Assembly (NCBI GenBank): GCA_963838925.1
Contig: CAWISW010000001.1
Span: 192,001-256,000, forward strand
Length of the DNA: 64,000 bases
Direction of reading: 5' to 3'
Source of the DNA: an uncultured Nitrososphaerota archaeon
GTDB lineage: Archaea > Thermoproteota > Nitrososphaeria > Nitrososphaerales > Gagatemarchaeaceae
Below the pieces are notes generated by a model. It made no database searches. It was not told the DNA's origin and was given only the letters and a program-made list of their open reading frames with translations. Made by a program: the position numbers and the translations under genes. This document shows positions 60,161 to 62,504 of the stretch, piece by piece (within the stretch, counting starts at the first letter, position 1; each line of letters begins with the position of its first letter).

Positions 60161-60199
60161 TAGCCCGTCCAGGGTCCGCACATGATTAGGTGCGAATCC
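60161..60199 (-). repeat. att-like site A (hairpin + tRNA-Gln nt 61-73)
   Basis: Minus strand GGATTCGCACCTAATCATGTGCGGAC-CCTGGACGGGCTA. Confidence 0.85.
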
Positions 60200-60240
60200 G
60201 CAGCCTGCTGCTGCCGTTGTCCGTGATACGAGGTAGCGAG

Positions 60241-60402
60241 CTAGGTCTCAAGTTCTCTCCTCAGTCTTATGATTAGGTCCAGGGCTTCGGACTCCTCCAG
60301 GAATGTCTCCGGACTGCGCTTCCACGCTATCGTGACGCTTCGTATCAGTTGCGTTTCGAGGTCCGCGAGCGTCGCGACGAGCGCTGCCCTCTGTTCAGCC
60401 AA
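60241..60402 (-). CDS. Small cassette protein (53 aa, helical)
   Basis: SD AGGGTGA 7 nt before TTG; MAEQRAALVATLADLETQ...RLRRELET*. Confidence 0.55.
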   Translation of the reverse strand: MAEQRAALVATLADLETQLIRSVTIAWKRSPETFLEESEALDLIIRLRRELET

Positions 60403-60515
60403 CCATCAATCACCCTGTCCGCCCAGGCCTGGAATCTCTCCGGATCTTTCCGCAGCTCCTCCATGTACTCGATTGCCTCTCTCAGTTCCCTGGCATCTTG
60501 CTGCTGCGAACTCAT
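60345..60515 (-). CDS. Small cassette protein (56 aa)
   Basis: AATAAATA box ~25 nt upstream; MSSQQQDARELREAIEYMEELRKDPERFQAW... Confidence 0.55.
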   Translation of the reverse strand: MSSQQQDARELREAIEYMEELRKDPERFQAWADRVIDGWLNRGQRSSRRSRTSKRN

Positions 60516-60602
60516 GCAAGCCCCATAACACGAGGGTCCTATTTATTCACCTACCGGAAAAGGAACGTTCGCTGACGGGTAAACACAGCCGAAATGAGGA
60601 GA

Positions 60603-60640
60603 TAGCCCGTCCAGGGTCCCCCTGTTTTGGGGGCGACTAG
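60603..60640 (-). repeat. att-like site B
   Basis: Minus strand CTAGTCGCCCCCAAAACAGGGGGAC-CCTGGACGGGCTA followed by TCTCCTCATTTC. Confidence 0.85.
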
Positions 60641-60712
60641 GACATCGTCCTTCCGAGATGGATCTTCCACGAACGTGCTTTAATATCTGGCCGTGAATGA
60701 TAACTGGTCTGC

Positions 60713-60973
60713 ATGGCTGCCAGGATGAGGGATGCCGTTAGCTCCGTCGAGAGGATACTACTTCCTCGTCTAAACAGCATTGACGGAGAGCTAAAATCAA
60801 TAAACACAAGGATAGACTCTGTTTACACAAGAATCGACGAAATGGACAAGCGGAACGACATCAGGTTTGAGGCAATCAGGAACGAAATACGAGCTGTTTC
60901 TGAAAAGGTCGAATTCGTCAAGGACGTGGAGCGGCTGAAGGTCGAAGTAGCTGAATTGAAGAAGCGACGATAA
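60713..60973 (+). CDS. Small coiled-coil cassette protein
   Basis: Heptad pattern INTRIDSVYTRIDEMDKR; TTTAATAT box at ~60679. Confidence 0.65.
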   Translation: MAARMRDAVSSVERILLPRLNSIDGELKSINTRIDSVYTRIDEMDKRNDIRFEAIRNEIRAVSEKVEFVKDVERLKVEVAELKKRR

Positions 60974-61124
60974 GCCGTCTCAACTCAACAATGAAGCGAA
61001 GCCCGAACGCAATGCATCCATCTCTCTATTGTACGTTGCCTAAAGCCATCAATTTTCAGCCTAGATTATCGATTCTAGAGCTATCGCTAGTCCACAATGG
61101 ATAACGGAGTCCAAAGTGAGGAGA

Positions 61125-61163
61125 TAGCCCGTCCAGGGGCTGCACCCGTTTAGGGGCTTTTAG
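61125..61163 (-). repeat. att-like site C
   Basis: Minus strand CTAAAAGCCCCTAAACGGGTGCAGCC-CCTGGACGGGCTA followed by TCTCCTCACTTT. Confidence 0.85.
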
Positions 61164-61182
61164 GCGGGAATTTGGCGCTCCT

Positions 61183-61596
61183 TCAGGCCAGTTTGACTGG
61201 GTCGATGGATTCGAGCCAGTCGACCTTCTTCAGCGCTTCGTCATGAGTCATTATCCTCTTCTCGCCAGCGCCGTCCATCATGGCCAAGAGCGTAGCGTCC
61301 CTGCCCCCAATGCCCAAGTGCGAGTACTTCTTCAGCATCTCTATTGCGCCGAGAGCGTGCCGGTAATCAAAGTCCGTTATGACCAGCGGGAATCGAAGGA
61401 ACTCGTCCAACTTCTCTCCGCCTATCGGAGCTCCAAGGCTCTTGACGAGAAAGTGGGCTAATTCCATCACGATTATTGTGTTTATCGCTATCTGCTCTGA
61501 CTTGAGGGCCTTCTCCACGGGTCCGACGACCGATTGATGCTCCGAACAGTCACTGTCCAAGTAGTAGGCCCAGATGTTCGTGTCAATGGTGAGCAT
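61183..61596 (-). CDS. vapC: PIN-domain toxin (VapC family)
   Basis: TIDTNIW, ME, GGRDAT, MTHDEAL acidic PIN residues; overlaps the AbrB gene. Confidence 0.9.
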   Translation of the reverse strand: MLTIDTNIWAYYLDSDCSEHQSVVGPVEKALKSEQIAINTIIVMELAHFLVKSLGAPIGGEKLDEFLRFPLVITDFDYRHALGAIEMLKKYSHLGIGGRDATLLAMMDGAGEKRIMTHDEALKKVDWLESIDPVKLA

Positions 61597-61834
61597 GGCC
61601 GACACCCCAGATGTTCTTGAGGTCAACGGGCTTGATCTTCGAGCCGTGCACGCAGCCTCTCAGCTCTGAAATGAATTCGTCCGCACTTACCTCCGGCGAA
61701 AGCAGCAGATCCTTCCCCTTCTTGGATATCCTGAGTTTCTGTTCCGGTCTTAGTTTGAGTTCTGACCTTATCTCGTTCGGAATCACTATCCTCCCTCGCT
61801 CGTCTATGACTGCCTCGCCCATCAGAATTCCCAT
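61583..61834 (-). CDS. AbrB/MazE/SpoVT family antitoxin (VapB)
   Basis: IDERGRIVIPNEIRSELKL; TTTATGTA box at ~61855-61862. Confidence 0.88.
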   Translation of the reverse strand: MGILMGEAVIDERGRIVIPNEIRSELKLRPEQKLRISKKGKDLLLSPEVSADEFISELRGCVHGSKIKPVDLKNIWGVGHAHH

Positions 61835-61866
61835 CCCATTTATTTTCCCGCTAGTACATAAACCTG

Positions 61867-61905
61867 TAGCCCGCTCCGGGCCTGCACCCAATTAGGTACG
61901 AATCC
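61867..61905 (-). repeat. att-like site D (diverged core)
   Basis: Minus strand GGATTCGTACCTAATTGGGTGCAGGC-CCGGAGCGGGCTA; 30/39 identical to site A without gaps. Confidence 0.8.
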
Positions 61906-61915
61906 AAATCCAGTC

Positions 61916-62275
61916 TCACGCCACGATGGGCCGGATCTTGGTGTGCAGATACTCGGCATTCGCGGAACGGAGGATCCTTAGGGCTAAGTAGACTCCATGT
62001 TTCTGGCTGTAGGTCAACATCACTTTCGATTCTTTGAATGCAAGTAGGATGAAGTCCATGGCGCCATAGACTTTCTCTTCTTGTTGAAACATTCCAATCG
62101 CGAGACTGTCGAGTCGCGCGACCTTTTTCTCCTCCTCCATTCCAAGCCTGTCTTTCTTCCCGTATGCCTCTGAATCGACATGTGCAACTTCCCCGCCCTG
62201 CTCGTCAATGACGAGGACGCGAAGGATAGCCGGGTCGGCGGCAAGAATCTTCTTGGCAAGAGATTCTGCGTCCAA
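61916..62275 (-). CDS. Roadblock/longin-like small alpha/beta protein (cassette cargo)
   Basis: ILRVLVIDEQG...YGAMDFILLAF..KVML pattern; own TATA-like CATAAAT ~30 nt upstream. Confidence 0.6.
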   Translation of the reverse strand: MDAESLAKKILAADPAILRVLVIDEQGGEVAHVDSEAYGKKDRLGMEEEKKVARLDSLAIGMFQQEEKVYGAMDFILLAFKESKVMLTYSQKHGVYLALRILRSANAEYLHTKIRPIVA

Positions 62276-62431
62276 GTCCTCGAAATTGAAACTCCAAGTG
62301 GAATTTATGTCTTCTAGGGGCCTGTGGCAGAAGCATGGACCTCAGATTTATTTTGCTGAGATTCTGCCCATGATGGCTAATCCGCGGCGAGTTCAAATCT
62401 TATACGGTAAACAGAGTAAGAAATGAGCGAA

Positions 62432-62504
62432 TAGCCCGTCCAGGATTCGAACCTGGGTCAGAGGCTCCAGAGGCCCCTATCCTTGACCACTAGACGAACG
62501 GGCT
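62432..62504 (-). tRNA. tRNA-Gln(CTG)
   Basis: AGCCCGT acceptor; GGGGC-CTCTGGA-GCCTC anticodon arm; CCAGG-TTCGAAT-CCTGG T arm; discriminator A; 73 nt, no intron. Confidence 0.95.

Follow-up and report, generated by a model that had tools for sequence, protein, structure and literature searches.

Small integrase-less units in tandem at the 3' end of tRNA-Gln(CTG) in a Nitrososphaerota archaeon: a probable array of cassettes mobilised in trans

Genomic islands that stand in tandem behind the ssrA gene have been described from Dehalococcoides, where each island ends in a 20-bp repeat of the 3' end of that gene together with an adjacent conserved motif. According to the available part of the source, a six-gene integration module that includes a serine recombinase is present in 16 of these islands, whereas the rest are suggested to be cis-mobilizable (PMC3146451). 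For the Thaumarchaeota, tRNA-targeting integrated elements and tandem integrations are reported, of which the smallest given in the part of the paper at hand is 2.6 kb long and encodes an integrase (PMC6563490), and integrons with intI and attC have been reported, again in the accessible part of the source, from archaeal metagenome-assembled genomes (10.1101/2022.02.06.479319 / PMC9668308). Here we surveyed a stretch of 64,000 nucleotides (the window) from contig CAWISW010000001.1 of an uncultured Nitrososphaerota archaeon (assembly GCA_963838925.1, 1.84 Mb and 87% complete, named G000 below), in which four small units follow one another between 60161 and 62444 behind the gene for tRNA-Gln(CTG). 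It is fairly probable that this array was formed when mini-elements bounded by att sites and lacking an integrase accreted in tandem at the 3' end of the tRNA gene, and that these are mobilised in trans. The evidence consists of the anatomy of the sites, the modular boundaries and the shuffling of the units, their foreign composition, the lack of any recombinase gene in cis and the occurrence in relatives of a recombinase family linked to tRNA-Gln. The literature searched gave no account of arrays of this kind in archaea.

The anchor of the array is an intact tRNA-Gln(CTG) gene at 62432-62504 on the minus strand (ARAGORN; Rfam RF00005, 57.2 bits), and all genes and sites of the array are given here in the sense of this tRNA, that is on the minus strand, unless stated otherwise. 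The last 13 nt of the tRNA (62432-62444), CCTGGACGGGCTA, constitute the att core. Four exact copies of this 13-mer occur in the window, all on the minus strand, namely the tRNA end itself, site C (61125-61137), site B (60603-60615) and site A (60161-60173), which is the distal end of the array; a degenerate 14-nt core, CCCGGAGCGGGCTA, forms site D at 61867-61880. The initial annotation of this DNA had listed the same three repeats and one variant, and the pattern search agreed with it, as did the core-to-core spacings of 442, 522, 742 and 565 bp, which define four units. At up to 2 mismatches there were 6 matches in the window against 2.37 expected from shuffled sequences, and the 2 extra matches are mismatched and on the opposite strand. 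Throughout the 1.84-Mb assembly all 4 exact copies belong to this locus, with 11 matches at up to 1 mismatch. The GC content of the array stretch is 47-56%, compared with 61-65% on both flanks.

Each unit follows the same plan when it is read in the tRNA sense: a core, a short P' arm, a TATA-like box, a cargo gene or gene pair, a P arm of about 40 nt with an inverted repeat, and then the next core. The TATA-like boxes are conserved and stand 22-35 nt ahead of the cargo start codons. The P' arm that had been proposed as common to three units was recovered behind the tRNA (TTCGCTCATTT, 62421-62431), behind the core at 61125 (TCTCCTCACTT, 61114-61124) and behind the core at 60603 (TCTCCTCATTT, 60592-60602), and the unit with the VapBC genes starts otherwise, with CAGGTTTATG. 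An inverted-repeat arm, described earlier as a hairpin, precedes every site; it is of class II at 60161 and 61867, of class I at 61125 and degenerate at 60603 (CCCCCAAAACAGGGGG, 60616-60645; nhmmer class I, 14.9 bits). Such a layout is the product expected from recombination of attP (P-core-P') with attB repeated at one tRNA site.

To judge from the part of the source available, the array resembles the Dehalococcoides ssrA islands and their cis-mobilizable elements (CIMEs) in that tandem units stand behind a small-RNA gene and each is delimited by a directly repeated copy of the 3' end of that gene, next to further conserved sequence; units without recombination genes, proposed there to use the integrase of a neighbour or helper, and strain-specific content are further likenesses. 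However, the Dehalococcoides islands are multi-kb, bacterial and associated with a serine recombinase, whereas here an archaeon is the host, with a tyrosine recombinase as the candidate enzyme. With the queries used, no recombinase was found here in the arrays of 11 genomes (a gene beside the tRNA in G012 aside) or in 40 metagenome loci, and 54 of 116 complete units are shorter than 1 kb and often hold a single gene. As elements that are bounded by the att sites of an integrative-element family and show no recombination or transfer genes, the arrays would be classed, by sequence, as CIMEs or products of accretion, and they fit the description of cis- or trans-mobilizable att-bounded elements at the extreme of size and number, in archaea. 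The integrated elements of Thaumarchaeota come from the same phylum and share the tRNA targets, short att cores, tyrosine recombinases and the reuse of sites that gives arrays, but sub-kb integrase-less units with conserved arms, as seen here, are not mentioned in the accessible part of that source (PMC6563490). The units have the direct repeats of a tRNA 3' end and the foreign composition of an autonomous element of the pNOB8 type (with a non-split integrase), and all four lack the tyrosine integrase of their own which such an element has.

In integrons, attC sites are imperfect inverted repeats with a conserved integron core, and the cassettes are mostly promoterless and are expressed from a common promoter. 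The array had been called integron-like, and the name is suitable as an analogy of function. In both systems long co-oriented arrays are built of small, mostly one-gene cassettes with inverted-repeat sites between them, the cargo is diverse and strain-specific with many toxin-antitoxin pairs (here 10 PIN matches in 119 open reading frames (ORFs), counted in the best 25 of 77 families), and the order varies among relatives; the variable cassette content and order with boundaries at the sites that characterises integrons was found here as well. As a statement of membership the name did not hold, since by sequence the array has neither intI nor attC and its cassettes are probably not promoterless. 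The integron integrase gene adjoins its array, whereas no PF00589 match was obtained in the arrays studied here. Where integrons have attC sites and an attI anchor, there is here the tRNA-Gln 3' end CCTGGACGGGCTA with arms of class I, II or III and a tRNA gene as anchor. In further contrast to integrons, the cassettes appear to carry their own predicted TATA-like promoter, one gene lies on the opposite strand, and folded single-strand substrates are unsupported by the covariation of the arms.

The modular nature of the array was examined by comparison with related genomes (G numbers) and with extracted loci (L numbers). When the DNA of 60 relatives was searched, matches to individual units were obtained but none to the whole array, and the matches stop at the sites. 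No fixed gene order was seen in the relatives, where the order differs, and the homology boundaries coincide with the sites; on both of these points the initial annotation had staked its proposal. Copies of the VapBC unit with 84-99% identity are present in six genome arrays. In the multiple alignment its homology starts inside the left core (..GGGCTA and then CAGGTTTATG) and stops right after the right core, and the sequence outside the cassette is unrelated between the copies, the left arms being of classes II, III and I and, in one case, a pseudo-tRNA. When the metagenome loci are included, this family has 9 members, and all known neighbours are distinct, both upstream (7 of 7) and downstream (8 of 8). 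The family of unit 4 comprises 6 clustered members, one of which is probably mis-clustered, and its known neighbours are also distinct (5 of 5 upstream, 4 of 4 downstream); the relatives of unit 4 lie in G020, G008 and the metagenome loci L092 and L097, each time beside different neighbours.

Changes of order and of address were also found. On one contig of 1.17 Mb in G018 the VapBC cassette is present in the tRNA-Gln(CTG) array and again behind a tRNA-Gln(TTG)-type gene, and these copies share 98.95% identity over a stretch that coincides exactly with the cassette. A second cassette (F5) common to both G018 arrays is 86% identical and is placed upstream of VapBC in one of them and downstream in the other. 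The relatives of window units 3 and 4 stand in opposite order in G020, and two cassettes which are adjacent in G009 have three others between them in G018. VapBC contigs of two unrelated soil or peat metagenomes (about 96-97% identity) diverge from the window at 61113-61125 and at 61906, and one of the diverging contigs runs into a P' arm type that G018 and G009 also have. We favour site-specific recombination at the core, because the order swaps cannot be explained by insertions and deletions alone and the bases shared to the left of VapBC are too few for homologous recombination. Beside the second VapBC copy of G018 (L023 7290-7445, C1:~83.3 kb) a degenerate copy of about 43 nt of the tRNA-Gln 3' end was seen 75 nt after the tRNA-Gln(TTG)-type gene, with the VapBC cassette directly next to it; this copy may have been left by an earlier integration that used a longer att.

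The exact core is present in 14 of the 61 family genomes, and it is clustered and co-oriented in G000 (4), G008 (5), G009 (7+1), G018 (7+1), G020 (5+1) and G014 (2). Three site models, one for each of the arm classes I, II and III, were built from 41 sites and were used with nhmmer for mapping of the arrays, which hold from 3 to at least 14 units behind tRNA-Gln and of which the longest, in G018, extends over about 20 kb. The arms are characterised by ..AAATTCCCGCCTAAAAGCCCCTAAACAGGTGCAGCC in class I, ..GGATTCGCACCTAATCAGGTGCAGCC in class II and ..GGGACAAATCGAACC-N9-GAAT in class III, and the same three classes occur throughout the arrays of the same genus and of soil and peat metagenomes. The core co-varies with the tRNA-Gln end of the host: G007, G010 and G001 repeat CCTAGTCGGGCTA, and G030 and G099, of another genus, repeat CCTAGCCGGGCTA. 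A scan of metagenome contigs with a single arm-and-core pattern returned 40 contigs from soil and peat with up to 11 sites each, several of them beginning with tRNA-Gln. The scan of genome contigs with arm and core returned 3 stretches on one contig only, which is the G018 array, and viral contigs gave 0 matches to the pattern. The profile scan of relatives which the initial annotation had recommended showed that like arrays are widespread and integrase-free.

The 11 genome arrays and the 40 metagenome loci were pooled, which gave 116 complete site-to-site units with a median length of 1211 bp. Apart from the 54 units below 1 kb, of which 11 are shorter than 200 bp and represent adjacent degenerate sites, 37 units measure 1-2 kb, 23 measure 2-5 kb and 2 are larger. 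When open-ended partial units are counted, 94 of the 178 pooled units are singletons, and turnover is therefore high. The cargo was classified by Pfam in 119 ORFs of eight arrays, where the best 25 of 77 families included, besides the 10 PIN matches, 5 MazE/AbrB, 5 ABC ATPases, 4 zinc dehydrogenases, 4 MarR, 3 SDR, 2 P-type ATPases, 2 CBS and 2 TetR. A similar picture was obtained from the larger ORFs of the metagenome arrays, for the best 25 of 100 families, and in both scans a single weak recombinase match could lie below these best families. The cargo of the arrays is made up of accessory genes, among which toxin-antitoxin pairs are the commonest.

The array had been said to be free of recombinases, and no match to PF00589 was found in the window; the sole match of the assembly is on contig C3. 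Protein-family and integrase-family searches detected no recombinase gene in any of the four units, and no integrase remnant was detectable in them; the initial annotation had held that its proposal would fall if each unit proved to be the deletion remnant of a large integrase-bearing element. Inside the arrays of the 11 genomes (G000, G018, G009, G008, G014, G020, G007, G010, G022, G006 and G012) PF00589 was not matched either, except by the G012 gene beside the tRNA. This gene is a 418-aa ORF whose start lies 14 nt behind the tRNA-Gln core and whose P' arm (CTCCTCAA..) is similar to the arms of the cassettes. The protein matches PF00589 weakly (E 0.0045), and the profile of its family reaches XerA/Xer among the PDB sequences only at E 0.15-0.19. 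The alignment of 8 homologues has R165, K222, H321 and the RD of HExRD as invariant or conserved positions. Seven of the 8 rows keep the GH..Y motif, one row being truncated. For the AlphaFold2 (AF2) model (predicted local distance difference test, pLDDT, 74.8) the first 28 Foldseek matches are all tyrosine recombinases, including XerA, Cre, lambda Int, Tn1549 Int and XerH, with XerA the best at E 6.5e-5. By its catalytic R-K-HxxR-H/W-Y set and its modelled fold the G012-type protein appears to be a divergent tyrosine recombinase.

This family is found in 19 of 91 family genomes. The gene adjoins tRNA-Gln in G012 and G099, and by their coordinates whole or fragmentary copies also adjoin tRNA-Gln in G031, G030, G033 and G005. 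In G099 it is part of an element of about 11.2 kb which is bounded by core repeats and whose distal arm resembles class III; an autonomous element using the same att site exists in these relatives (G012, G099). Neither the profile of the G012-type family nor the integrase of G000 had any match in 120 array ORFs or in the 192 kb of metagenome loci. This G000 integrase, the only one with PF00589 in the assembly (431 aa, in the locus C3:12443-15976), was considered as the engine of the array and was rejected, as it lies behind a 3' fragment of a glutamine-synthetase gene and matches nothing in the arrays. It starts about 30 nt after the stop of the 219-aa C-terminal fragment, a position which suggests another target; it probably serves another element, and that element may have integrated into a protein-coding gene. 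Large array ORFs were also considered as hidden integrases and were rejected. Of the 9 proteins scanned, that of G012 was alone in touching PF00589, and 4 could be assigned to no Pfam family (L022, 436 aa; L025, 417 and 538 aa; L024, 577 aa). The remaining four comprise a subtilase, an oxidoreductase, an Ig-like protein and a zinc alcohol dehydrogenase (ADH).

We propose that the region 60161-62444 would represent four integrase-less mini integrative elements, or cassettes, accreted in tandem at the 3' end of tRNA-Gln(CTG), and that these cassettes would belong to a large pool which is exchanged and reordered among the like arrays of related soil Nitrososphaerota. The most likely engine would be a tyrosine recombinase supplied in trans, which could recombine any two cores and so excise, insert and reorder the cassettes; the candidate for this part is the divergent tyrosine recombinase family found directly behind tRNA-Gln in the autonomous elements of relatives. 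From the comparison of the arrays we infer that the exchange would be site-specific and not homologous, that it would pass through circular intermediates, that the enzyme would act in trans and that the G012-type family may supply it. In a wider and more tentative form, which is possible and which we hold somewhat less probable than its opposite, the soil Nitrososphaerota would have a platform for gene capture that set out from another starting point than the integron and came by convergence to the same principle, with a large pool of self-expressed one-gene cassettes bearing attP-like arms, excised circles, a trans-acting and tRNA-Gln-specific divergent tyrosine recombinase and stabilisation by toxin-antitoxin pairs, anchored at tRNA-Gln and probably at tRNA-Arg too. 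The comparative tests were favourable to the interpretation of the initial annotation, a cassette system captured in trans, and the candidate recombinase family beside tRNA-Gln in relatives lends it further support, so that it is supported in part; capture one by one, circles, trans action and the identity of the enzyme are its hypothetical elements, no circular junction was found, and decay, in the form of truncated sites and integrase 5' fragments, also shapes the loci.

Several results weigh against accretion with mobilisation in trans. The circular junction expected by the initial annotation did not appear: for the VapBC cassette, a circular or tandem junction (the vapC end, arm and core joined to the cassette's own start) was found in 0 stretches of the metagenome contigs. 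Joints were examined in the short Logan contigs of four sequencing runs, aligned at 90% likeness, where uncovered parts are uninformative, and the joints seen in one run ('goes back 719', and skips) were rejected as circles because their sides of 24-54 nt lie within arms common to many cassettes. The arrays hold truncated sites. At the tRNA-side junctions compared for VapBC (window 61867-61880, G018, G009, G008, L095 and L103) the core is imperfect in 7 of 7 copies, and differently in each, whereas 5 of the 7 have a perfect core at their opposite end; on account of the truncated sites and of these imperfect cores, many junctions may be dead. The imperfect core may be either an aberrant attP core of the cassette itself or the result of excision-dead sites being favoured for an addiction module. 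Integrase 5' fragments lie beside tRNA-Gln in several relatives, where autonomous elements decay in place. The present assembly, at 87% completeness, contains no copy of the G012-type recombinase, so that the array here may be silent at present, and 3 of the 5 other array-bearing genomes have only distant relatives of it. More distant relatives with lengths of 376-418 aa are encoded in G008, G018 and G009. An empty site for comparison was not found, the flank gene in G017, G006 and G022 adjoining neither tRNA-Gln nor an array. Finally, the covariation of the arm hairpin is not above that of shuffles, of which 181 in 500 reach the observed score, and the hairpin was rejected as a selected structure on this ground; the inverted repeat of the arm is more likely a putative protein-binding site than a folded substrate.

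The best surviving alternative, although an unlikely one, is that every unit is the leftover of a separate and once autonomous integrase-bearing element at tRNA-Gln which was shrunk by deletion, in which case genomes would share units because they inherited them from a common ancestor, and deletions between direct repeats as well as new insertions would have come later. It would account for the integrase 5' fragments (about aa 7-85) that adjoin tRNA-Gln in G030, G033, G005 and others, for the truncated and degenerate sites within the arrays and for the fact that most array-bearing genomes are without a cognate integrase, and a review of archaeal tyrosine recombinases, in its available part, ascribes integrase-less integrated elements to the loss of genes after integration (PMC8371274). 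However, random deletion should not repeatedly spare both arms while these abut the promoter and the stop codon of a single gene, and no integrase remnant is seen in the 120 array ORFs. The order swaps between the two G018 arrays (G018a and G018b) and between G000 and G020 are impossible by insertions and deletions alone. The explanation also has to meet the presence of one cassette, 98.95% identical, at a second tRNA-Gln gene of the same G018 contig, and the fact that the known neighbours of the VapBC cassette all differ.

Ordinary tandem integration might also have been followed by exchange between arrays or strains through homologous recombination or gene conversion at the arm and core of about 60 bp, with no part for a site-specific recombinase. 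Arms of classes I, II and III are indeed common to many unrelated cassettes with 40-60 bp of near-identity, and tandem integrated archaeal elements are said in the accessible part of the same review to swap modules in this manner (PMC8371274). We regard this explanation as improbable, since to the left of VapBC only about the 6 last nt of a degenerate core are shared, which is too little, since the upstream arms at that side differ in class (II, III, I and a pseudo-tRNA), and since the core tracks the tRNA sequence of the host. It is very improbable that the hairpin and the tRNA-acceptor-like 3' strand are a signal for transcript ends or processing, a tRNA-like punctuation for which the repeats were spread: the sites do lie on the tRNA strand just past the stop codons of most cargo genes and 92.7% of the cells of the class II stem are paired, but the covariation is no greater than in shuffles, Rfam matches nothing except the tRNA itself, the unit 3 gene is on the other strand, and the arrays are always anchored at tRNA-Gln with a core that changes with the tRNA.

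If the cassettes proposed under accretion and mobilisation in trans do move one at a time, they would provide a second and independent route to gene capture of the integron type, in an abundant lineage of soil archaea. This would explain how small accessory genes are traded without a recombinase for each gene; toxin-antitoxin pairs, ABC exporters, dehydrogenases, regulators and P-type ATPases are among the cargo that was found. The arm with the tRNA 3' end can be used as a simple signature for mining of this flexible gene pool, as a single pattern scan already gave 40 metagenome contigs. The recombinase and its sites (an arm of about 40 nt and a core of 13 nt) would form a compact and testable archaeal system of site-specific recombination.

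The gene content given for the four units by the initial annotation was recovered in each case. Unit 1, which is proximal to the tRNA (61881-62431; 565 bp core to core), has no DNA homologue in the 60 relatives searched. Its gene (61916-62275) encodes a 119-aa protein that belongs to a small orphan family with 10 homologues. Pfam and NCBIfam searches gave no match for this protein, and membership in Roadblock/LC7 by sequence therefore does not hold, as there is no Pfam match. Its AF2 model has a pLDDT of 88.2, and Foldseek returned 3kye (E 9.8e-6, template-modelling score, TM, 0.68) followed by LAMTOR and MglB, from which the protein is predicted to have the alpha-beta-alpha sandwich fold of Roadblock/LC7/MglB. 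The unit ends in the class II P arm GGATTCGTACCTAATTGGGTGCAGG with its inverted repeat (61881-61921; nhmmer class II, 28.4 bits; arm alignment).

Unit 2 (61138-61866; 742 bp) is the VapBC cassette. It holds a vapB-like gene for a 77-aa antitoxin of AbrB/MazE fold (61583-61816; PF04014, E 4.1e-5, with 23.9 bits just below the cut-off of 24.7) and a vapC-like gene for a 137-aa PIN-domain toxin (61183-61596; PF01850, E 1e-12), and the end of the former overlaps the start of the latter by 14 nt. With a PIN toxin preceded by a small overlapping antitoxin of AbrB/MazE type, the pair is, by its sequence features, a putative VapBC module. The class I P arm of the unit is CAAATTCCCGCCTAAAAGCCCCTAAACGGGTGCAGCC (61138-61179; nhmmer class I, 60.6 bits). 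Unit 3 (60616-61124; 522 bp) contains a gene for an 86-aa coiled-coil protein at 60713-60973 on the plus strand, opposite to the other cargo, for which weak coiled-coil Pfam matches alone were obtained. Unit 4 (60174-60602; 442 bp) contains a 56-aa ORF (60345-60515) with a conserved AATAAATA box ahead of it in 5 aligned copies, and a second ORF of 53 aa (60241-60402) which overlaps the first and is conserved in the same 5 copies; its class II P arm is GGATTCGCACCTAATCATGTGCGGAC (60174-60215; nhmmer class II, 48.0 bits). For the ORF pair as a whole (60241-60515) the overlap itself is conserved in the five copies, which come from different arrays. The pair could represent a very small module of two genes, or else a single gene that is read with a frameshift.

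Outside the array, the distal flank carries a 398-aa gene without any family (58694-59890, minus strand), which shows 72-79% DNA identity in G012, G017, G006 and G022, and the conserved chromosomal flank starts 8-20 nt past the site at 60161. On the tRNA side lies argS, for arginyl-tRNA synthetase (62581-63999, minus strand), which runs off the window; its identity, given earlier, is borne out by matches to PF05746 (DALR_1) and PF00750 (tRNA-synt_1d). The neighbourhood of tRNA-Arg(CCG), argS and tRNA-Gln is kept in the metagenome contigs L079, L095 and L102 as well as in G000 (C1:256627), which shows that the array borders on stable chromosome at its tRNA side. The Rfam scan returned the tRNA itself as sole match and no other family.

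Two further tRNA genes of the assembly, both outside the window, were found with repeats of their 3' parts. Behind tRNA-Arg(TCG) (C3:699751-701950) there are two small units, 1217 and 910 bp long, each of which ends in a copy of the last 10-11 nt of the tRNA after a conserved arm of its own, GGAATCCAnTTTnAGAACCCGTyCAGGsGCGGG; a second tRNA thus bears a mini-array of the kind described above. For tRNA-Ser(GGA) (C1:64476-65480) at least 58 nt of the 3' part are repeated 917 bp later, which is a remnant of a different type with a long att. In G012 the array that abuts the homologue of the flank gene (C5:416-430 kb) lies about 340 kb from tRNA-Gln(CTG) and the integrase (C5:767136-768475) and is inverted relative to them, which could reflect an inversion between att sites or a misassembly.

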